In this document: piece by piece, positions 3,958 through 34,012 of the stretch
Numbering within the stretch: the stretch's first letter is position 1
How the letters are laid out: each line of letters begins with the position of its first letter
DNA from: Solirubrobacterales bacterium
GTDB lineage: Bacteria; Actinomycetota; Thermoleophilia; Solirubrobacterales; 70-9
Length of the DNA stretch: 38,939 nucleotides
Assembly (NCBI GenBank): GCA_036406355.1
Contig: DASXBC010000046.1
Location: 1 to 38,939, forward strand
Direction of reading: 5' to 3'
The notes under the pieces: model-generated
The model's input: the letters and a program-made list of their open reading frames with translations, nothing else
What the model was told of the DNA's origin: nothing
Databases searched by the model: none
Position numbers and translations under genes: made by a program

Positions 3958-4395
3958 GTGGCGGACCGGACCTGGCCTCTCCTCCGTCGTCTCGCCGGCC
4001 TCCACACCCTGCTCTACCGCGCGACCGGCGGCCGGTTCGGGCTGAGCGTCCCGGGCGGCCCGGGACGGATGCTTCTCCTCGACCACGTCGGCGCGAAGAG
4101 CGGGACCGAGCGCACCTGCCCCCTGCTCTACATCGAGGACGGCGACAACGTCGTGGTAATCGCCTCCAAGGGCGGATACCCGAGACATCCGGCTTGGTAC
4201 CACAACCTGATGGCCAACCCCGACACCGCGGTCCAGATCGGCAACGAGCGTCGCCGGGTGCGCGCCCGGCTCGCCACGCCCGAGGAGCACCAGCGCCTCT
4301 GGCCCGAGGCGGTCAGGGTCTGGGGCGGGTACGCCGACTACCAGGCGCGGAGCAAGGGGCGCGAGATCCCGATGGTCGTCCTCGAGCCCCGCTAG
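3958..4395 (+). CDS. Deazaflavin (F420)-dependent nitroreductase family protein (DUF385/Ddn-like)
   Basis: 145-aa ORF with a GTG start. Family blocks present: LLLDHVGAKSGTERTCPL, ASKGGYPRHPAWYHNL, and a C-terminal IPMVVLEPR. Confidence 0.8.
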   Translation: MADRTWPLLRRLAGLHTLLYRATGGRFGLSVPGGPGRMLLLDHVGAKSGTERTCPLLYIEDGDNVVVIASKGGYPRHPAWYHNLMANPDTAVQIGNERRRVRARLATPEEHQRLWPEAVRVWGGYADYQARSKGREIPMVVLEPR

Positions 4396-5249
4396 TCCTT
4401 CGGCCGTCGCTCCTCGGCGACGGGATCGCCGCCCTCGCCGACGATCGCATCCGGGGGCCACGGCCCTGCCCAGTTGTCGCGAGCACCGTCGATCGTGATC
4501 GTCGTCCCGGAGACGAAGTCGCCGGCCGGCGAGGCGAGATAGGCGACGAGCCAGGCGAGCTCCTCGGCCCGTCCGGCGCGCCCGATCGGGATCGAGCGCT
4601 CGAGGTTTTCGACCACCACCTGCGGATACTTGGTCAGCAGCGTCTCGGTCGCGAACTGGCCTGCCGCCAGCGCGCAGGTCGTGATCCCGAACCGCGCCCA
4701 CTCGACCGCGAGCGTCCGCATCATGTTCTCGACCGCAGCGCGGGCCGCGCCCGAGTGGACCATCCCGGGCATCCCGTGGTGCGGGGAGAGGGTGACGCTG
4801 AGGACCTTGCCGCCCCCCTGGGGGATGAACCCCCTGGTCGCCGCGGCATGGGTCATCAGCCAGGTCCCCTGCACGTTCAACTCGGTCACCGTGCGGAAGC
4901 CCTTCGGGCTGATCGCCTCGGCCGGGCTGAGGAACTGCCCGCCGGCGTTGTTGACGAGGACATCGAGCCTTCCGTGGCGCTCGAGCAGGCCGTCGATCAG
5001 CCGCTCGACCGCCTCCTCCTCGCGGATGTCCATCGCCTCGTGCTCGAAGCTTCCCGCCAGCCCCTCGGCGAGGGCCTCGGTCTCGGCCAGCGGCTCCTCC
5101 CGGCGCCCGCAGCCGACCACCTTCGCGCCGAGCCGGGCCAACTCGAGCGCGGTCTCGCGCCCGAGGCCGCTGCCTGAGCCGGAGACGAGGCAGACCTGGC
5201 CCTCGAGCAGGCCGTCCCTGAATATGCGCGAACGAGCGCTCTCAGACAT
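4392..5249 (-). CDS. SDR family oxidoreductase (enoyl/dienoyl-CoA reductase-like)
   Basis: 285-aa ORF with the SGSGSGLG Rossmann motif and NNAGG. Overall it resembles the peroxisomal trans-2-enoyl-CoA reductase/DECR type. Its stop shares a CTAG with the convergent gene. Confidence 0.8.
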   Translation of the reverse strand: MSESARSRIFRDGLLEGQVCLVSGSGSGLGRETALELARLGAKVVGCGRREEPLAETEALAEGLAGSFEHEAMDIREEEAVERLIDGLLERHGRLDVLVNNAGGQFLSPAEAISPKGFRTVTELNVQGTWLMTHAAATRGFIPQGGGKVLSVTLSPHHGMPGMVHSGAARAAVENMMRTLAVEWARFGITTCALAAGQFATETLLTKYPQVVVENLERSIPIGRAGRAEELAWLVAYLASPAGDFVSGTTITIDGARDNWAGPWPPDAIVGEGGDPVAEERRPKD

Positions 5250-5260
5250 GAGCCATCAGA

Positions 5261-5323
5261 TTTCGTGCTTCGTTCGCTGCGCAAACGAGTCAGATATGCA
5301 TGCTTGCTCTCTCCGCACTCAGG
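5261..5323 (-). promoter_or_regulatory. Conserved ~60-nt leader element, copy A, 11 nt upstream of the SDR start at 5249
   Basis: Reverse complement reads TGAGTGCGGAGAGAGCAAGCATGCATATCTGACTCGTTTGCGCAGCGAACGAAGCACGAAA. It aligns with 11612-11671 at about 53 of 61 columns by hand count, and with the reverse complement of 9181-9235. Confidence 0.6.
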
Positions 5324-5352
5324 TCAGCCTATAGGCGGCATCACCAGGGGTA

Positions 5353-6276
5353 ATGTCCGCCGCGATGAAGGTGCAGGTGGAGGCAAAACCGCTGCACGAG
5401 CCGCTTTCCGGCGGGACCCCTGGCGCGACGGTCACGGTCGAGCCGATCGTCACCGGCACGACCAACTTTCCCAGGGCGCTGATGGAAAGCCCAGGTGGCC
5501 GCTTCCTGGGGGCGCGCCTGGGATGGGCTCTCCTGACCGGCAAGGAAGCAACCGAGGTTCCCTGTCCCGTCTTCCTCATCCGCCACCCGAGCGCCGGCGC
5601 GATCCTCGTCGACACCGGCCTGCACCCCTCGATCGCGACCGACGCCGAAGAGAACTTCGGCCGCCTGCCGACCCGCTTCGGCAAGCCGAATGTCAGGCCC
5701 GACGGCGACGCTCCGGCCCAGCTCCGCAAGCGCGGCCTCGACCCCGGCGAGATCCCCGTCGTCGTCATGACCCACCTCCACATCGACCACACGTCGGCGA
5801 TCTCCGAGTTCCCGAACTCGACCTTCGTCGCCAGCGAGCTCGAGTGGCAGGACGCCACCCAAGGCAGCCGGCCGACGCTGAAGGGCTACCGCCGGATTCA
5901 CCTCGACTTCGCCTTCGACTACCGGACCGTCGACTTCGACCGCGGTGGGATCGGCTCCTACGCGACCTTCGGCCGGACCTTCGACCTCTTCGGCGACGGC
6001 TCGGTCAGGCTCGCTTACACCCCCGGTCACTCGGCGGGACACATGTCAGTGGTCGCGCGGCTGAAGGAGACTGACTTCGTGATCGGCGGCGACGCCGCCT
6101 ACACGGTCGCCCAGCTCGACGGCGTCGCGCCGCTGCCGCCGCGTCCGTTCGACGCCCACAACTACCGTCGCTCGCTGCAGGAGCTGAGGCTGTTTCGGCG
6201 CGAGTACCCGGCGGCGGTCGTCACCCCGGGACATGACGCGGGGTTCTACGAAGGGCTCGAGCCGCGCTACGAGTAG
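5353..6276 (+). CDS. MBL-fold metallo-hydrolase (N-acyl homoserine lactonase-like)
   Basis: 307-aa ORF with the HxHxDH motif (THLHIDHTSA) and a downstream TPGHSAGH. Confidence 0.8.
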   Translation: MSAAMKVQVEAKPLHEPLSGGTPGATVTVEPIVTGTTNFPRALMESPGGRFLGARLGWALLTGKEATEVPCPVFLIRHPSAGAILVDTGLHPSIATDAEENFGRLPTRFGKPNVRPDGDAPAQLRKRGLDPGEIPVVVMTHLHIDHTSAISEFPNSTFVASELEWQDATQGSRPTLKGYRRIHLDFAFDYRTVDFDRGGIGSYATFGRTFDLFGDGSVRLAYTPGHSAGHMSVVARLKETDFVIGGDAAYTVAQLDGVAPLPPRPFDAHNYRRSLQELRLFRREYPAAVVTPGHDAGFYEGLEPRYE

Positions 6277-7034
6277 TTCGTTTTCCCCGGCTCTGGGGTG
6301 ACCCCCTCGCGGAGGGTGCGAATAACGTTTCGCCGGCCCTGCTCGTCGAGGCGCGTGTACATCGCCCGCACCCGGTCGAAGATCTCCGTCGCGACTTCGA
6401 GCTGGCGCTCGCGGCCCGGCGACTCCTCGGCCGAGAAGGAGAGCGGCTCGCCGAACTGCACCGTCACCTTCGGGAAGCGGAACCGCTTCCAGCGCCGGAC
6501 GGTTGCGGATCCGTGGATCGCGACCGGGATCACGGGTACGCCGGACTCGAGCGCGAGCCGGCCGACACCCGGTTTCGGGTCGCCGAGCTCGCCGCTGCGG
6601 GAACGCCCGCCCTCGGCGTAGATCAGCAGCATCCCGCCCTGGTCGAGGACCGTGTAGGCAGTCGCGAACGCCTCCTCGTCATGGTGGCCGCGGCGGACCG
6701 GGATCACGCCGCCGTGCTTGAAGATGTAATTCAGCACCGGGTTGCCGAAGAGCTGCGATTTCGCCATGAACCGGATCTGTCGGCGTAGGTAAAGGCCGGT
6801 GAAGAAGTGGTCCATCTGGCTGAAGTGGTTGGGCGCCAGGATCAACGGCCCTGACTTCGGCACGTTCTTCACTCCGATGGCGCGAGTGCGGTAGAGCAGG
6901 AGCGCCGGGGGCGTGACGAGGGTGCGGACGAGAGGGTAAGTCCAGCCGACGCCTCGGCGAGCGGCGGCATGGAACTGGTCGAAGTACTCCGCCGGGCGAT
7001 CGTCCTTGTAGACCTGTGGCTTGATGTCGGGCAT
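6267..7034 (-). CDS. plsC: 1-acyl-sn-glycerol-3-phosphate acyltransferase family protein
   Basis: 255-aa ORF with the acyltransferase motifs NHFSQMDH (HX4D) and YAEGGRSRSG. It lies directly downstream of glpK on the same strand. Confidence 0.8.
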   Translation of the reverse strand: MPDIKPQVYKDDRPAEYFDQFHAAARRGVGWTYPLVRTLVTPPALLLYRTRAIGVKNVPKSGPLILAPNHFSQMDHFFTGLYLRRQIRFMAKSQLFGNPVLNYIFKHGGVIPVRRGHHDEEAFATAYTVLDQGGMLLIYAEGGRSRSGELGDPKPGVGRLALESGVPVIPVAIHGSATVRRWKRFRFPKVTVQFGEPLSFSAEESPGRERQLEVATEIFDRVRAMYTRLDEQGRRNVIRTLREGVTPEPGKTNYS

Positions 7035-7091
7035 GTCCGGATGGCCGATCTAACCGGCCCTCGCCCTGCCTACCCCCTGGCGGGGCGGGGG

Positions 7092-8555
7092 TTACGCAGC
7101 CTCGCCGGGCAGCACCCAGGCCCGCGAACGCTCGAGCGCTCGGCGCCATTCCGCCAGCAGCGGGTCCCGCCTATCGGCGCCGATGCCGGGCTCATAGCGG
7201 GCCGACTCCCGCCAGGTCCGCCGGACGTCCTCCTCGCTCCAGTGGCCGGTCGCGATCCCGGCAAGGTAGGCGGCGCCGAGCGCCGTCGTCTCGCTGATCT
7301 CGGGGACGATAACCGGCGCGCCGAGGACGTCCGCCTGGAACTGCATCAGCCACTCGTTCGCGACCGCGCCGCCGTCCGCTTTGAGCTCGGCCAGCCGCTC
7401 TCCCGCCGCCGCCTCCTGTGCCCTGACGGCGTCGACCGTCTGGTAGGCGATCGCCTCGAGCGCGGCGCGGGCGAGGTGCGCGCGTCCGCTCCCCCGCGTC
7501 AGTCCGACGATCGTGCCACGCGCGTACGGGTCCCAGTACGGGGACCCGAGGCCGGTCAGCGCCGGCACGAAGTAGACGCCCTCGTTGCCCTCGAGCGAGG
7601 CCGCCAGCTCCTCGGTCTCCCCCGCCTCGGCGACGATGCCGAGCCCATCACGCAGCCACTGGATCGCAGCTCCGGTGACGAAGATCGAGGCCTCGAGGGC
7701 ATAGGCGGGAACGCCACCGGTCTCGCAGGCGACCGTCGAGAGCAGCCCGTCGGCCGGCTCTGGGAGGTCGGTGCCGGTGTGGAGGAGGACGAAGCTGCCG
7801 GTCCCGTATGTGTTCTTCGCGCTGCCGGCGCGATGGCAGGCCTGTCCGAACAGCGCCGCCTGCTGGTCGCCGGCGATCCCGGCGACGGGAACCTCGCCGC
7901 CGAACTCGGTCGTGGTCCCGAATACGCCCGAGGAGGGAAGCGCTTCCGGCAAGCTTCCAGGGTCGACGCCGAGCATCGCGCAGAGCTCCTCGTCCCAGCG
8001 ATGCCGGCGGATGTCGAACAGCATCGTCCGCGACGCGTTGGTCCGGTCGGTGGCGTGACGCCCGGTCAGCTTGAAAAGCAGCCAGGAGTCGATCGTCCCG
8101 AAGAGGGCGCGATCGGCGCCCTCGACGTTGCGCAGCAGCCACTCGATCTTCGTCCCCGAGAAATAGGGGTCGAGGACCAGGCCGCTCCGCTCGCGGACGA
8201 GTCCCTCCCGCCCCTCGGAGCGCAGCTCCTCGCAGCGCTCGGCGGTGCGGCGGTCCTGCCAGACGAGCGCCCGGTGGATCGGCTCGCCGCTGGCCGGGTC
8301 CCAGGCGACCACCGTCTCGCGCTGGTTGGTGATGCCGATCGCCTCGAGCTCGCCGCCTTCGATCCCCGCGTCGGCTATCGCCTCGGCGGCGACCCGCCGC
8401 GTCGTCTCCCAGATCTCCGCCGCGTCGTGCTCGACCCAGCCGGGACGCGGGAAGTGCTGCTCGAACTCGGAATAGGCACGACCCGCGATCCGCGCCTCGT
8501 CGTCGAAGACGAGGCAGGTCGTGCCCGTCGTGCCCTGGTCGATCGCGAGGATCAT
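7092..8555 (-). CDS. glpK: Glycerol kinase
   Basis: 487-aa ORF. The N-terminus ILAIDQGTTGTTCLVFD and FGGY-family blocks run through the whole length (GITNQRETVVAWD, YFSGTKIEWLL, GDQQAALFGQ). Confidence 0.95.
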   Translation of the reverse strand: MILAIDQGTTGTTCLVFDDEARIAGRAYSEFEQHFPRPGWVEHDAAEIWETTRRVAAEAIADAGIEGGELEAIGITNQRETVVAWDPASGEPIHRALVWQDRRTAERCEELRSEGREGLVRERSGLVLDPYFSGTKIEWLLRNVEGADRALFGTIDSWLLFKLTGRHATDRTNASRTMLFDIRRHRWDEELCAMLGVDPGSLPEALPSSGVFGTTTEFGGEVPVAGIAGDQQAALFGQACHRAGSAKNTYGTGSFVLLHTGTDLPEPADGLLSTVACETGGVPAYALEASIFVTGAAIQWLRDGLGIVAEAGETEELAASLEGNEGVYFVPALTGLGSPYWDPYARGTIVGLTRGSGRAHLARAALEAIAYQTVDAVRAQEAAAGERLAELKADGGAVANEWLMQFQADVLGAPVIVPEISETTALGAAYLAGIATGHWSEEDVRRTWRESARYEPGIGADRRDPLLAEWRRALERSRAWVLPGEAA

Positions 8556-8585
8556 TGAAGAACTGGATCGCGCGCCGCGACCAGG

Positions 8586-9167
8586 CTATCCGGCTTCCGC
8601 CCGGGCCCCCGTAGCGATCGTCAGCAGCGCCTCGCCGAGGCCGGAGACGTCTTCCTCGCCCGTCCCCAGCCGGCGCACCGCGAGCCCGTACATCAGCGCC
8701 ACGATCGAGCGCGCATGGCGATTTGGGTCGGGCACCTCGAGCGCCTCGAGGGCGGCCTCGGCGACTTCTTCGTAGGCGACGAAGCAACGGCGGGAGGCAT
8801 CGCGCAGCTCACGGTCGCGCGCGGCCTGGAGGTGGAGCTCGATCTCCGCCAGTTCCTGAATCCGGCGAGGAGACTCCCGCGCGACCCGCTCGACCTCGAG
8901 CGCGACCTGCTCGATGCCGGGGCGCGCTCGCCGCAGCTCGGCGGCGATCCCCTCGAGGCGGACGACCTCCTCGCCGACCATCAGCATCAGGCTCTCCCGG
9001 AGGAGGTCGAGCTGGCTGTCGAAGTGGTAGGTGAGCGACCCCAGGGACACCTCCGCGGCGTCGGCGACGCGGCGGTTGGTGACGGCGGCGATCCCCTCGC
9101 GCCCGATCAGGTCGAGCGTCGTCCGCAGGATCCGCTCGCGGGTGTCGGTGACGGTTGCCGTTGCCAT
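8586..9167 (-). CDS. TetR/AcrR family transcriptional regulator
   Basis: 193-aa ORF with an N-terminal HTH (RERILRTTLDLIGREGIAAVTNRRVADAAEVSLGSLTYHF). Only 30 nt separate it from glpK, so TetR-glpK-plsC is probably one operon. Confidence 0.85.
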   Translation of the reverse strand: MATATVTDTRERILRTTLDLIGREGIAAVTNRRVADAAEVSLGSLTYHFDSQLDLLRESLMLMVGEEVVRLEGIAAELRRARPGIEQVALEVERVARESPRRIQELAEIELHLQAARDRELRDASRRCFVAYEEVAEAALEALEVPDPNRHARSIVALMYGLAVRRLGTGEEDVSGLGEALLTIATGARAEAG

Positions 9168-9180
9168 CTAGAAATCCTCG

Positions 9181-9238
9181 TCCTCCGCTCGCGGCGCGAA
9201 ATGCCAGATATGGACGCCTGCTCGCTCCGCCCTCACGG
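9181..9238 (-). promoter_or_regulatory. Conserved ~60-nt leader element, copy B, 13 nt upstream of the TetR start at 9167
   Basis: Reverse complement reads TGAGGGCGGAGCGAGCAGGCGTCCATATCTGGCATTTCGCGCCGCGAGCGGAGGA. This is the most diverged of the three copies (roughly three quarters identical to copy C by hand count). Confidence 0.55.
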
Positions 9239-9265
9239 GCCCAGACTACCCCGTTTTCGCCTATT

Positions 9266-9281
9266 GTTCGTTCGAACGAAC
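9266..9281. promoter_or_regulatory. Perfect 16-bp palindrome GTTCGTTCGAACGAAC, a candidate TetR-type operator
   Basis: Exact dyad symmetry read directly from the sequence. It lies in the 136-bp divergent region between the TetR gene and the amidase gene, 22 nt upstream of the amidase ATG at 9304. Confidence 0.5.
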
Positions 9282-9303
9282 CAGCCGACCAGGAAGGAGC
9301 CCG

Positions 9304-10725
9304 ATGCCGACAAGTACCGAATCAGAGCTCGGGCTGCGGGAGCAGGCGGGGATGCTGGCGACCGGCGGCGTCTCCTCACGCGAGCTGGTCGACGATTCGC
9401 TGCGGCGGGCCGAGGCCGCCCAGCGCGACCTGAACGCGTTCCGGCTGATCCGGGCCGAGGAGGCGCTGGCTGAGGCCGAGGCGGCCGATCGGCGCATCGC
9501 GGATGGCGATGGGGCCCCGCTCCTCGGGGTGCCGGTCGCGATCAAGGACGACGTCGACCTCGCGGGCCACCCGACGCTGTTCGGCTGCGGCGGGGCGTGC
9601 CCTCCGGCGACGCGGGACGCCGAGGTGGTGCGGAGGCTGCGCACCGCCGGGGCAATCGTGATCGGCAAGACCCACGCCCCGGAGGTGGGGCAGTGGTCAT
9701 TCACCGAGGGCCCCTCGTTCGGGGCGACACGGAACCCCTGGAGCATCGGCCACACTCCCGGGGGGTCGAGTGGCGGAGCGGCGGCGGCGGTCGCCGCCGG
9801 ACTGGTCCCGGCGGCAATCGGGTCCGACGGCGCCGGGTCGATTCGGATCCCCGCCGCATGGACCGGGCTGGTCGGGCTGAAGCCGCAGCGCGGCAGAATC
9901 TCGACCTGGCCCAACGCCGATGCGTTCAACGGCCTGACCTGCTTCGGCCCGATGACCCGCAGCGTCGCCGACGCCGCCCTCCTCCTTGACGCGATCCACG
10001 GCAGCGCCCCCGGCGACCACCACAGGCCGGCGGCCCCGGTCGAGCCCTTCGTCGAGTCCGCGGGCCGCGAACCGAAGTCGCTGCGGATCGCCCTCTCCTA
10101 CGCGACGCCGTTCGGGGTTTCGAGCGAGGTGGACCCCGAGCACCGAGAGGCGATCGAGGCCTTCGCCCGGCGCCTCGAGGAGCTCGGGCACGACGTCGTC
10201 AGGGCCGACCCCGACTACGGACTCGTCGGCCCGGCGCTCATCCCGCGCGGTATGGCCGCGGTCGAGGCCTGGCTCAGCGACAACCTCGGCGACCGCTCGA
10301 ACCTCGAGCCGCGGACCAGGACCCACGCCCGCTTCGGACGCCTGCTCTCGGGCCTGCCGCTACGGGCGTCGCGGGCGGCGGAGCCGGCGCTGCGACGCCG
10401 CATTGGCCGCGTCTTCGAGCGCTTCGACCTTGTCCTCACCCCGACCACCGCGAAGCCCCCGGGGGAGATCTACAGCCTTGACGGGCGCGGCTACTGGGCG
10501 ACGAGCACCAGGGTCAGCGCCGCCTGCCCCTACGGGTTCGCCTGGAACGTCGTCGGCTGGCCGGGGATCAGCATCCCCGCCGGCATGACGAAGGCGGGCC
10601 TGCCGATCGGAGCCCAGCTCCTCGCCCCGGAAGACGGCGAGGCGGAGCTGTTCGAGCTCGCGGGGTCGGTCGAGCGGTCCGTCGGCGGCTGGGAGCGGGC
10701 TCCCTATCCACGTCGCGATCCGTAG
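9304..10725 (+). CDS. Amidase (amidase signature family)
   Basis: 473-aa ORF with the AS-family signature GGSSGGAAAAVAAG and KDDVDLAG. AGGAAGGAG Shine-Dalgarno upstream. Confidence 0.9.
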   Translation: MPTSTESELGLREQAGMLATGGVSSRELVDDSLRRAEAAQRDLNAFRLIRAEEALAEAEAADRRIADGDGAPLLGVPVAIKDDVDLAGHPTLFGCGGACPPATRDAEVVRRLRTAGAIVIGKTHAPEVGQWSFTEGPSFGATRNPWSIGHTPGGSSGGAAAAVAAGLVPAAIGSDGAGSIRIPAAWTGLVGLKPQRGRISTWPNADAFNGLTCFGPMTRSVADAALLLDAIHGSAPGDHHRPAAPVEPFVESAGREPKSLRIALSYATPFGVSSEVDPEHREAIEAFARRLEELGHDVVRADPDYGLVGPALIPRGMAAVEAWLSDNLGDRSNLEPRTRTHARFGRLLSGLPLRASRAAEPALRRRIGRVFERFDLVLTPTTAKPPGEIYSLDGRGYWATSTRVSAACPYGFAWNVVGWPGISIPAGMTKAGLPIGAQLLAPEDGEAELFELAGSVERSVGGWERAPYPRRDP

Positions 10726-11381
10726 GCCCGGGCGAAGTCGCGGAGCTGCCGCGCGCGGTGGGCGAAGCCGACGAGGGTGCGACCGGTGGCGCGGTGCGAG
10801 AGATCGAGCTCGTACTCGCGAAGCTCGTGGCCGGCGCGGACCGCGTCGATTGTCATACCGACCTCCATCCCGTAGCCGCCGGCGAATGGGAGAACCGAGC
10901 GCAGCACGTCGACCCGCATCGCCCGCTGGCCTGAGATCGGGGCCCGCGTCTCGAGCCCGCAGCAGCGGCGGATCGCCCAGCGCGCGAACCCGAGGGCGAC
11001 TCCGAAGCCGCCACCCACCCGGCGGTTGAAGGCGGCGACGGCGAGATCGCACTCGCCGCGCTCGATCGCCTCGACCAGCGGGCTGAGGGACGCGGCCGTG
11101 GGGCCGAGGTCGCCGTCGCAGAGAAGGAAGATGTCGGGCGGCGACACCGAGAGCGCCGCCTCGGCGGCGGCGGTCACGTTGGCACCCTTGCCGTGCGGCC
11201 GGCCGCGGCTGACGACCCGCGCGCCCGCCGCCAGCGCGACACCCTCGGTGTCGTCGGTCGAGGCGTCGTCGGCGACCCAGATCGCGGCGTCGGGGAAGGC
11301 GCCGCGCAGCGCAGCGACCGTGTCGCCCACCCGGTCGGCCTCGTTGCGCGCCGCGACGAGGACCGCGAGTGAGTCACCCAC
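10704..11381 (-). CDS. Glycosyltransferase family 2 protein
   Basis: 225-aa ORF with a GTG start and GT-A N-terminal blocks (VLVAARNEADRV, VADDASTDDT, CDGDL). Its 3' end overlaps the amidase 3' end by 22 nt. Confidence 0.7.
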   Translation of the reverse strand: MGDSLAVLVAARNEADRVGDTVAALRGAFPDAAIWVADDASTDDTEGVALAAGARVVSRGRPHGKGANVTAAAEAALSVSPPDIFLLCDGDLGPTAASLSPLVEAIERGECDLAVAAFNRRVGGGFGVALGFARWAIRRCCGLETRAPISGQRAMRVDVLRSVLPFAGGYGMEVGMTIDAVRAGHELREYELDLSHRATGRTLVGFAHRARQLRDFARAYGSRRG

Positions 11382-11401
11382 GGCGGATATTGTCCCGCTC
11401 C

Positions 11402-11614
11402 ATGGCGGACATTGAGGCGCACATCACCGGCAACGTATGGAAAATCGAGGTCGCGGTCGGCGACAGGGTCGAGGAGGGCGACACCGTTGTCATCCTCGAG
11501 TCGATGAAGATGGAGATCCCGGTCGAGGCCGAGGACGAGGGGACCGTCAAGGAGATCCTCTGCGAAGAGGGGAAGTCGGTCAGCGAAGGCGACGTTCTGG
11601 TCGTCCTGGAGTGA
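11402..11614 (+). CDS. Biotin/lipoyl attachment domain protein (stand-alone BCCP-like carrier)
   Basis: Track ORF 11369..11614 trimmed to the ATG at 11402 (MADIEAHITG). Contains the biotinylation motif ESMKME. Confidence 0.8.
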   Translation: MADIEAHITGNVWKIEVAVGDRVEEGDTVVILESMKMEIPVEAEDEGTVKEILCEEGKSVSEGDVLVVLE

Positions 11615-11672
11615 GCGCGGAGGGAGCAAGCGTGCATATCTGTCTCTTCGCGCAGCGAGCGAAGCGCGAAAG
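11611..11672 (+). promoter_or_regulatory. Conserved ~60-nt leader element, copy C, 7 nt upstream of the enoyl-CoA hydratase GTG at 11679
   Basis: Reads GTGAGCGCGGAGGGAGCAAGCGTGCATATCTGTCTCTTCGCGCAGCGAGCGAAGCGCGAAAG. It begins inside the stop codon of the upstream gene. It can form an 11-bp stem (11615-11625 with 11643-11653, including 2 G-U pairs). Confidence 0.6.
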
Positions 11673-11678
11673 GTAGTA

Positions 11679-12488
11679 GTGGCTTCCGAGCGGCTCGCCG
11701 GCGGCAAGCTGATCCTCGACTCCCCCGCCGAGGCGGTCGTCCGGATCACGATCTCCAATCCCGAGCGGCGCAACGCCCTCGACCACGAGATCCTCGACGG
11801 CCTGGCCGAGACGCTGCCGCGCCTCGACTCCGGGATCGAGAACCGCTGCGTGCTGATCACCGGGGCGCCCCCCGTCTTCTCCGCCGGCTACGACATCGGC
11901 TCGATCCCCGAACAGAGCTTCGAGCGCGACGCCGAGTCCCTCGTCGCCCATCCCTTCCACGCCGCAATGGAGGCTCTCGCTGCGCACCCGTGGCCGACGG
12001 TGGCGATGATCAACGGCCACTGCCTCGGCGGTGGCCTCGAGCTGGCGATCACCTGCGACATGCGGGTCTGCGCGGCGGGGGCGAAACTGGGCATGCCACC
12101 GGCGAAACTGGGCCTGATCTACGGCCACACCGGCCTGCGCAAGTTCCTCGACACGATCGGGCTGCCGCGGACCAAGGAGCTGTTCCTGACCGGGCGAAAC
12201 GTCGAAGCCGAACGGGCCGAGGAGATCGGCCTCGTCCACGAGGTCTTCCCCGAGGACGAGCTCGAGGAAGCCGCGGTCGAGCTGGCGGCGGCGATCGCGG
12301 CCAACGCGCCGCTCTCGATGCGGGGCAACAAGCAGGCGATCGAAGCCCTGAACGCGAACCCGGTGCTGACCGCGGCGCAGGAGGCGGAGCTCGTATCCCT
12401 GCGCGAGTCCTGCTTCGGCTCCGACGACTTCCGCGAGGGGATCCAGGCGTTCGCCGAGAAGCGCAAACCGCGCTGGACCGGGCAGTGA
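11679..12488 (+). CDS. Enoyl-CoA hydratase/isomerase (crotonase) family protein
   Basis: 269-aa ORF with a GTG start and crotonase blocks (RRNALD, FSAGYDI, INGHCLGGGLELAITCDMR). Confidence 0.9.
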   Translation: MASERLAGGKLILDSPAEAVVRITISNPERRNALDHEILDGLAETLPRLDSGIENRCVLITGAPPVFSAGYDIGSIPEQSFERDAESLVAHPFHAAMEALAAHPWPTVAMINGHCLGGGLELAITCDMRVCAAGAKLGMPPAKLGLIYGHTGLRKFLDTIGLPRTKELFLTGRNVEAERAEEIGLVHEVFPEDELEEAAVELAAAIAANAPLSMRGNKQAIEALNANPVLTAAQEAELVSLRESCFGSDDFREGIQAFAEKRKPRWTGQ

Positions 12489-33938: not shown

Positions 33939-34012
33939 CGGGGCGTGGCGCAGCCTGGTAGCGCGCACCGTTCGGGTCGGTGAGGTCCCCGGTTCAAATC
34001 CGGGCGCCCCGA
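33939..34012 (+). tRNA. tRNA-Pro (anticodon CGG)
   Basis: Hand-folded cloverleaf. Acceptor CGGGGCG/CGCCCCG, D-arm GCGC-AGCCTGGTA-GCGC, anticodon arm CACCG-TTCGGGT-CGGTG (CGG), and T-arm CCCGG-TTCAAAT-CCGGG. Discriminator is A and there is no encoded CCA. GATAAT -10-like box at 33922-33927. Confidence 0.9.

Follow-up and report, generated by a model that had tools for sequence, protein, structure and literature searches.

Mycobacterial interspersed repetitive units (MIRUs) have served as typing markers for decades; their movement and role are unclear, and they are regarded as specific to a few mycobacteria. According to the description of Supply et al. (1997) as relayed in PMC12548453, they are dispersed units of 53 or 77 nt with an open reading frame (ORF) overlapping the flanking stop and start codons, and the view taken there is that they insert at start codons and hardly impair expression. 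MIRUs have been described as confined to M. leprae, the M. tuberculosis complex and their relatives (PMC4213456). Here we report a short element found in three copies (A, B and C) in a stretch of 38,939 nt from a Solirubrobacterales bacterium (contig DASXBC010000046.1 of assembly GCA_036406355.1), hereafter the window. With a probability of roughly 0.75, we consider it to be a new structured, MIRU-like dispersed repeat, specific to Solirubrobacterales and located at translation starts, its translation and mobility being suggested by its sequence. No description of the element in Solirubrobacterales was found in the literature.

A dispersed repeat in Solirubrobacterales genomes

The original prediction had pointed to three look-alike stretches in the window, and the degenerate core GCGGAGNGAGCANGCNTNCATATCTG does match the window at exactly three sites, with matches in 0 of 100 dinucleotide-preserving shuffles. 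The identities counted by hand at that time were reproduced (53/61 for A and C, 43/61 for A and B, 46/60 for C and B), the pairwise likeness of the copies being 70–87%. A covariance model built from relatives of the element recovers all three copies (scores in Table 1) and no fourth one, the next-best match in the window having 13.4 bits. Each copy lies on the same strand as the next gene, and its conserved block ends a few nucleotides before the start codon of that gene, so the fixed orientation and spacing described earlier hold. The copies are also placed where they had been reported, but their 5′ edge was moved 1–4 nt further out, to a start codon. The block CATATCTG, which had been taken as invariant, varies across the family as a whole, in which the loop comes nearer to CAT-N-TCTG.

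The element had been said to belong to no known RNA family, and in Rfam it indeed has no match, either at the gathering score or, for positions 5100–11800, at E ≤ 10. It had also been regarded as having no −10 promoter role, that is, as acting in or on the RNA of a 5′ leader or an intercistronic region, and this agrees with the present data. A promoter inside the element was rejected, as there is no TANNNT hexamer within it and copies also occur inside operons. An E. coli-type promoter scan gave zero matches and position statistics of TANNNT were used in its place, while sigma-54 or extracytoplasmic function (ECF)-type spacing was a poor fit as judged by eye only.

The scan of species-representative genomes relied on a pattern of 22 nt from the 5′ half of the element, in which 18 bases were specified. 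The resulting genome set comprises at least 116 stretches, and the records listed for them are all metagenome-assembled genomes (MAGs) of Solirubrobacterales or classed only as Actinomycetota/Actinomycetes. Several MAGs give many element loci (designated by L numbers), with MAG SMAG_U3859 being the source of L011, L013 and L042. Beyond the window, there are more than 230 further sites, including 121 in Solirubrobacterales MAGs and others in soil and other metagenome contigs. A search using nhmmer with a hidden Markov model of the copies found 138 copies at ≥27 bits in the 930 kb fetched, which amounts to about one extra copy per 45 kb beyond the locus-defining copy and agrees with three copies in the 39-kb window. 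The second, metagenome set was collected with a pattern fixing only both ends of the element and includes 120 stretches, the covariance model confirming 91 of them. Approximately 15 of these stretches (L121, L122, L124, L140, L144, L150, L159 and L160 among them) are chance pattern matches in ordinary coding sequence, which the model rejected. A phage origin was also rejected, with zero copies in viral contigs.

The genes located 3′ of the copies are highly diverse: 123 of their proteins match 129 different Pfam families and show no shared pathway or ligand. They include response regulators, RNase PH, ATP synthase, S-adenosylmethionine synthetase, riboflavin synthesis and glycine cleavage proteins, aminotransferases and transporters. 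ECH is the commonest family, yet it accounts for only 6 of the 123 proteins. Many copies are intercistronic, between co-transcribed genes.

A reading frame spanning the element

The unit is a repeat of about 68 nt (65–68 nt) with a length of 2 mod 3, and the copies, once oriented, consist of (A/G)TGAGCGCGGAGCGAGCAAGCGTGCATATCTGGTTCTTCGCGCCGCGAGCGAAGCGCGA followed by some 8 variable nucleotides and NTG. Among 115 aligned copies of the genome set, the first triplet is ATG in 60, GTG in 22 and TTG in 6. In about 70–80% of copies a frame of 21–24 codons runs from this triplet to a TGA which overlaps the start codon of the host gene as NTGA or TGATG. Both the start codon and the open frame are present in 80 of the 115 copies. 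The TGA of this upstream ORF (uORF) lies at offset −1 to the main start in 42 copies of the genome set, most others belonging to the same frame class. The metagenome set gives a similar picture, with the frame open in 76 of 93 copies, a modal length of 23 codons, and junctions of the NTGA type in 58 and of the TGATG type in 5 of the 76. The start-to-start distances in this set are 68 nt (41 copies), 65 nt (12), 71 nt (7) and 74 nt (3), all of them 2 mod 3.

The exact consensus length was found in 83 of 84 open-frame copies and in 18 of the 31 interrupted by an early stop (p = 5e-8, a value inflated by orthologues), and the presence of the start codon goes with the open frame (p = 1e-13, likewise inflated by orthologues, the effect being large). 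Judging by these figures, the frame looks selected. The peptide is not conserved where the RNA changes, hence it seems to be the act of translation, not its product, that matters.

More than 90% of the copies have a co-oriented ORF start within about 70 nt downstream in a fixed phase, and GAGGA often stands 8–11 nt before the host start, in the tail of the element. The suggestion that open-frame copies do without a Shine-Dalgarno sequence was contradicted by the data, as the tail contains a Shine-Dalgarno-like 4-mer in 48% of them, compared with 25% of the decayed class and a crude background of 17%. A whole initiation region thus seems to be contained in the cassette.

Two contexts are found upstream. 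In the first one, a TANNNT hexamer begins at −13/−12 from the A/G of the uORF start in 22 of 111 copies versus about 0.1% per position elsewhere, so that this start codon lies 6–7 nt past the −10 box; in the metagenome set the cluster is similar but broader (−17 to −12). From what is generally known of actinobacterial promoters, this is the spacing expected for leaderless mRNA, from which we infer that transcription may start at the start codon of the unit. In the second context, the TGA within the NTGA of the unit serves as stop codon for a genuine gene upstream, as in copy C.

In about one-tenth of the copies the host gene itself opens with the first 13–20 nt of the element (ATGAGCGCGGAGCG..., protein MSAER...), as observed at L065, L072, L101, L057, L006, L013:3425, L127 and L203. 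Such starts resemble a truncated second unit fused in frame and could be either exaptations of the element as an N-terminus or miscalled starts.

The conserved hairpin

Mutual information reveals long-range pairs in the element and RNAalifold gives two helices. The structure is an irregular hairpin (rod) of about 53 nt on the sense strand, consisting in order of P1 (4 bp), a GGA/GAA purine loop, 2 bp, tandem G.A pairs, 2 bp, a 2×3 internal loop, P2 (3 bp) and a hairpin loop of about 16 nt, the best-kept part of which is CAT-N-TCTG. P1 is formed by the 5′ GCGC located just past the start codon and a 3′ GCGC, with variants GTGC/GCAC (copy A), ACGC/GCGT, GGCC/GGCC and CCGC/GCGG; GC, AU, CG, UA and UG pairs are all seen in P1.

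In the genome set, 84 copies have GC and 28 have AU at pair 24–42. The structure has a covariation score of 0.182, compared to 0.090 in shuffles (none of the 500 reaching 0.182) and at most 0.10 in slid registers; all covariation measures but one exceed all 500 shuffles, with the remaining one being equalled by a single shuffle. Because the genome-set pattern had fixed the 5′ half of the element, less biased copies were sought for the interior pairs. Compensated changes at pairs 18–51 and 19–50 were found in 17 nhmmer hits lacking the pattern. In the metagenome set, where the interior was unfixed, pair 18–51 is GC in 49, CG in 25 and AU in 6 copies, pair 22–44 is GC in 72 and AU in 6, and pair 24–42 is GC in 70 and AU in 11. 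The hairpin of about 53 nt is thus supported by compensatory changes in two independently ascertained sets. The consensus minimum free energy (MFE) fold, comprising two local hairpins of which the 3′ one would mask GAGGA, was rejected as the conserved structure, since it shows no covariation and has 76.8% of cells paired versus 76.9% in shuffles.

A subfamily of metagenome loci (L143, L146, L206, L217, L219, L221, L223 and L227) is 2–3 nt longer than the other copies and has the 5′ arm GAGCC(C)AA(A)TGAGGCAT in place of GAGCAAGCGTGCAT; its inner helix seems to be register-shifted, with GAGG pairing with CTTC.

Filled and empty sites and tandem arrays

To find orthologous sites without the element, the N-terminal 120 residues of every downstream protein were compared with all loci. 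This resulted in eight clean filled/empty pairs, namely L063/L045, L108/L020, L082/L086, L034/L038, L115/L089, L031/L077, L004/L059 and L068/L015. In these pairs the flanks align around an insert of about 68–75 nt at the start codon (7 nt upstream of it in L004). The −10 box or the upstream stop stays where it was, and the 3′ end of the insert provides a new start codon. A long target-site duplication, or IS200-like guide-target pairing of P1, was considered but not supported, as the matches of the 5′ ends to their own gene starts are no longer than those to others, with few exceptions (e.g. L113, L007, L039 and the L035 array). Compared with the terminal inverted repeats of classical miniature inverted-repeat transposable elements (MITEs), which derive from DDE transposons, the only terminal complementarity of the element is the 4-bp P1.

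Tandem arrays were also found. The array at L035:6069-6290 consists of 3.2 units of 68 nt with 98% identity and has a solitary copy (6402-6467) about 110 nt away, the one at L107:3106-3297 consists of 2.9 units of 65 nt, and two units are arranged head-to-tail at both L013:1847-1980 and L195:2395-2524. Within the arrays, the ATGA of each unit is the stop of the previous one, so the arrays resemble variable-number tandem repeats, as at MIRU loci.

Twenty-seven orthologous filled pairs, copy A and the L048 element among them, are on average 82% identical in the part free of the search pattern, compared with 70% at the four-fold degenerate positions of the neighbouring gene, which indicates that the copies are old and constrained.

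Comparison with known repeats and leaders

For a direct comparison, the M. tuberculosis senX3-regX3 locus (L240) was retrieved via RegX3. Its MIRU array contains 3.1 units of 77 nt, each opening with ATGA; the first unit overlaps the senX3 stop and the last one is joined to regX3 by TGATGA. The element described here is similar in being a short unit (65–68 nt) which is dispersed, sometimes tandem and co-oriented with the flanking genes. It likewise has an ATG-type start overlapping the upstream stop and an ORF stop overlapping the downstream start (ATGA/TGATG), and is found at start codons with eight filled/empty orthologous pairs. The lengths are also alike in being 2 mod 3 (68, 65, 71 and 74 nt for the element, 68 and 65 nt for the array periods, 77 nt for the MIRU), a property by which successive units and genes would stay coupled.

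At the same time, the element has no sequence or structure similarity to MIRUs: the covariance model R1 run with filters off on senX3-regX3 gave no match in the array (1355-1593), the best score elsewhere being 5.4 bits (E = 1.5). Its hosts belong to another class of Actinomycetota, beyond the described MIRU range, it occurs mostly as single copies, and many of these are at apparently leaderless promoters, not inside operons. A long hairpin backed by covariation was not found described for MIRUs, which were themselves checked by a single fold only. We therefore class the element as working like a MIRU yet lying outside the MIRU sequence family.

Several of the RegX3 database entries (P0001-P0010) are 245–347 aa long instead of 227 aa, and P0003 (256 aa; L240:1501-2271) begins within the MIRU array, at a point 5′ of the true ATG (about 1588). 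It appears that gene callers run on through MIRU units, and N-terminal miscalls of the same kind are likely beside the Solirubrobacterales element.

Repetitive extragenic palindromic sequences (REPs) are extragenic, typically located 3′ of genes in both orientations or as inverted pairs, and have no coupled ORF. The element shares with REPs and bacterial interspersed mosaic elements (BIMEs), whose transposases are the REP-associated tyrosine transposases (RAYTs), and with IS200/IS605-derived hairpin MITEs the property of being a short, abundant, lineage-specific repeat around an imperfect hairpin. It differs in lying at start codons strictly in the sense orientation, in having a reading frame that is conserved, and in not being placed as REPs are. 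A REP/MITE-type repeat had been proposed for the case of many genomic copies in random orientation and position. The many copies exist, but they are strictly oriented and stand at start codons; neither the regulon leader of the original prediction nor a randomly oriented REP/MITE fits the element.

The upstream ORFs of leaderless mycobacterial mRNAs (Shell et al. 2015, PMC4633059, as cited in PMC12548453) are similar in that they are short ORFs at leaderless 5′ ends able to deliver ribosomes to a coupled gene. They are locus-specific, whereas the element is a repeated structured cassette common to hundreds of unrelated genes. With riboswitches and other Rfam leaders it shares a conserved covarying sense-strand structure just upstream of start codons. 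Unlike them, it has no Rfam match and no functional coherence of downstream genes, shows presence/absence polymorphism and tandem arrays, and is probably translated through rather than located upstream of a ribosome-binding site.

Proposed mechanism and alternative explanations

The dispersed nature of the repeat, its placement at start codons, the design of the coupled frame and the hairpin are well supported. From the sequence architecture and the MIRU precedent we infer that transcription may start at the element, that the mini-ORF may be translated and coupled to the host gene, and that the unit may be mobile. The ATG or GTG of the unit would take the place of the original initiation signal of the host gene, either as a leaderless 5′ end or through an NTGA overlap with the upstream stop. 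Ribosomes would load at this first codon, either through leaderless initiation or through coupling to the preceding gene, translate the mini-ORF of 21–24 codons through the hairpin, terminate at the TGA overlapping the host start (NTGA/TGATG) and re-initiate there, probably assisted in about half of the copies by the GAGGA-like Shine-Dalgarno sequence in the tail. As expression of the host gene would be preserved, the element would be able to colonise many start codons or to be maintained there. The hairpin may be the feature recognised by the propagating or exploiting agent, be it a mobilising enzyme or an RNA-binding factor.

Several observations weigh against a MIRU-like mobile unit. About 25–30% of the genome-set copies have no translatable mini-ORF and still keep the hairpin, so coupling alone does not explain the role of the latter. 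Both copy sets were ascertained by patterns and include orthologues, hence the counts do not represent independent events. The wobble bias towards the sense strand is modest (37 G.U versus 14 A.C). Single-sequence folding of the three window copies on both strands gave no stability signal (z from −0.1 to +1.9), thermodynamics does not pick out the hairpin (single-sequence z-scores of −0.1 to +1.2), and the covariation-supported fold has −17.0 kcal/mol versus −21.4 kcal/mol for the MFE, which belongs to a different fold. The 'empty' sites could equally be precise deletions, and a target-site duplication beyond NTG(A) is not demonstrable. Finally, the element changes more slowly than synonymous sites, which would be expected of a host-level function no less than of a selfish element.

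The hairpin is under selection even in copies with a decayed mini-ORF. Because of this retention and of the slow evolution of the copies, it is either a propagation handle or a site used by the host. The likeliest of the alternatives, though doubtful, is a trans-regulated RNA leader, whose hairpin and loop would bind a lineage-specific protein, small RNA or ligand, with at least 100 genes forming one post-transcriptional regulon and the mini-ORF serving as its read-out. Such a leader would account for the covariation-backed helices with a conserved loop, for the hairpin being kept where the mini-ORF has decayed, for retention at orthologous sites with change slower than at four-fold degenerate ones, and for the strict sense orientation in 5′ leaders, and it is compatible with a mobile origin. 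However, the downstream genes have no common function, the loop is more variable than first thought, no Rfam family matches the element, and presence/absence between close relatives together with tandem arrays would be unusual for a regulon signal.

It is unlikely that the element is a single-stranded DNA hairpin repeat of the REP/RAYT or IS200/IS605 MITE type, the hairpin of which would be recognised in DNA and moved by an HUH/Y1 transposase, with the mini-ORF being merely what selection leaves. Its imperfect hairpin with mismatches and a conserved loop is reminiscent of REPs and IS200/IS605 ends as generally known; there are many dispersed copies with gain and loss at orthologous sites, and the wobble-type pairs are only modestly strand-biased. 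Nevertheless, the copies are co-oriented with the downstream gene at start codons, unlike the inverted pairs or 3′-of-gene sites of REPs/BIMEs, the variation of the P1 5′ strand does not follow the host-site sequence, leaving no guide-target signature, and the conservation of both the frame and the exact length points to a constraint at the level of translation. No transposase gene was found, though none was specifically sought.

A genuine conserved small-protein gene (MSAERASVHIWFFAPRAKRE...) preceding many genes by chance would be consistent with a frame that is open and of conserved length in about 70–80% of copies. It is highly improbable, given that helix-preserving compensatory changes alter the peptide (e.g. 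ERAS to ERPS or ERTR), codon 10 may be I, L, P, F or V, stops occur at codon 5 or 11 in about a quarter of the copies and the C-terminal 3–4 residues are essentially random.

The original prediction of an operator or leader acting in cis for a small lipid/acyl-CoA regulon, possibly bound by the TetR protein encoded in the window, is almost certainly wrong: the window copies do precede an SDR (short-chain dehydrogenase/reductase) gene, a TetR–glycerol kinase–acyltransferase operon and an enoyl-CoA hydratase gene, and ECH is the single most frequent downstream family, but there are more than 230 copies elsewhere, many of them intercistronic, the Pfam survey with its 129 families shows no common function downstream, and the lipid character shared by the genes in the window is due to chance in sampling. 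As for binding by TetR, the element occurs genome-wide, its pairing is long-range and includes covarying G.U wobbles, which a double-stranded operator would not tolerate, and neither operator-type dyad symmetry nor a short palindrome confined to the targets of the regulator was found in it.

The three copies and their neighbouring genes

The coordinates of the copies and of the features next to them are given in Table 1.

Table 1 Features of the window related to copies A, B and C of the element (1-based positions; bit scores are those of the covariance model built from relatives).
Feature	Coordinates	Strand	Basis or remark
Copy C, complete 68-nt unit, intercistronic	11611-11678	+	covariance model, 81.9 bits
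Copy C hairpin	11615-11667	+	P1 GCGC 11615-11618 with GCGC 11664-11667
Copy B, unit at the start of a divergent transcript	9168-9236	−	covariance model, 70.1 bits
Copy B hairpin	9180-9232	−	covariance-model alignment
TAGTCT, TANNNT −10-type hexamer	9243-9248	−	6 nt before copy B GTG
Copy A, unit with decayed mini-ORF	5250-5322	−	covariance model, 74.5 bits
Copy A hairpin	5265-5318	−	P1 GTGC 5318-5315 with GCAC 5268-5265
TAGGCT, TANNNT hexamer	5326-5331	−	3 nt 5′ of copy A CTG
Core match in copy A	5291-5316	−	pattern search of the window
Core match in copy B	9205-9230	−	pattern search of the window
Core match in copy C	11617-11642	+	pattern search of the window
SDR gene	4392-5249	−	Pfam; downstream of copy A
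Acyltransferase gene	6267-7034	−	Pfam; same cluster as TetR
FGGY kinase gene	7092-8555	−	Pfam; same cluster as TetR
TetR gene	8586-9167	−	Pfam; downstream of copy B
Biotinyl-carrier (BCCP-like) gene	11369-11614	+	Pfam; stop codon overlapped by copy C mini-ORF start
Enoyl-CoA hydratase gene	11679-12488	+	Pfam; downstream of copy C

By context, the window copies would represent three types, with copy C showing the overlap with an upstream stop, copy B belonging to the TANNNT/leaderless type and copy A to the decayed class. The uORF of copy C begins with GTG at 11611-11613, which forms GTGA with the overlapping TGA (11612-11614) that ends the BCCP-like gene, and includes 21 codons (VSAEGASVHICLFAQRAKRER) followed by the TAG stop at 11674-11676, with the GTG of the enoyl-CoA hydratase gene at 11679. 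The inner helices and tandem G.A pairs of its hairpin are as in the family model, and the loop holds CATATCTG at 11635-11642.

In copy B, the uORF begins with GTG at 9236-9234 and contains 22 codons (VRAERAGVHIWHFAPRAEDEDF), its TAG (9170-9168) abutting the ATG of the TetR gene at 9167, and the tail holds GAGGA, a Shine-Dalgarno-like run. P1 is weakened here, with two of the four pairs between GGGC (9232-9229) and GGAC (9183-9180) broken, while the inner helices are intact. The hexamer TAGTCT ends 6 nt before the GTG, which is the spacing expected of a leaderless transcript.

In copy A, CTG (5322-5320) replaces ATG/GTG, a TGA stands at codon 11 (5292-5290) and there is a 1-nt insertion in the 3′ half; the ATG of the SDR gene is at 5249. 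The orthologue of this SDR gene in another MAG (L048, 80% amino acid identity) is likewise preceded by the element. P1 is a compensated variant of the consensus GCGC/GCGC and P2 is a compensated A-U variant (GCA/TGC), the loop containing CATATCTG at 5298-5291. A transcript begun 6–7 nt past TAGGCT would start at the 5′ edge of the copy, and the family shows a secondary TANNNT peak at −9/−10, where this hexamer lies. A frame of four codons (ATGGCTCATGTCTGA) at 5242-5256 on the reverse strand, between copy A and the SDR start, straddles the SDR ATG; it may be a remnant of the coupled tail of copy A or may have arisen by chance.

The BCCP-like gene is a stand-alone gene immediately 5′ of the enoyl-CoA hydratase gene and codes for 70–81 aa, with no carboxylase subunit seen among the annotated ORFs adjoining it. 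The only Rfam match in the window is a tRNA gene at 33939-34012 on the forward strand (59.5 bits).

Significance of the element

The element represents a sequence-unrelated family with the start-codon, coupled-ORF architecture of MIRUs in a distant and poorly studied actinobacterial order. Its hundreds of diverged copies, filled/empty sites and covarying hairpin provide comparative material on what is recognised during spread, on whether translational coupling makes such insertions harmless, and on the co-option of cassettes to regulate leaderless genes. For annotation, it means that start codons and N-termini beside the units are easily miscalled.

More speculatively, and in our opinion rather unlikely, the cassette may be a portable structured initiation module, the hairpin and loop of which are read by a lineage-specific trans-acting factor, and not just tolerated junk. 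If so, at least 100 leaderless or coupled genes of Solirubrobacterales would be under genome-wide post-transcriptional control; on another reading of such a module, the hairpin would be the handle of a start-codon-homing mechanism, which would bear on how MIRUs move.

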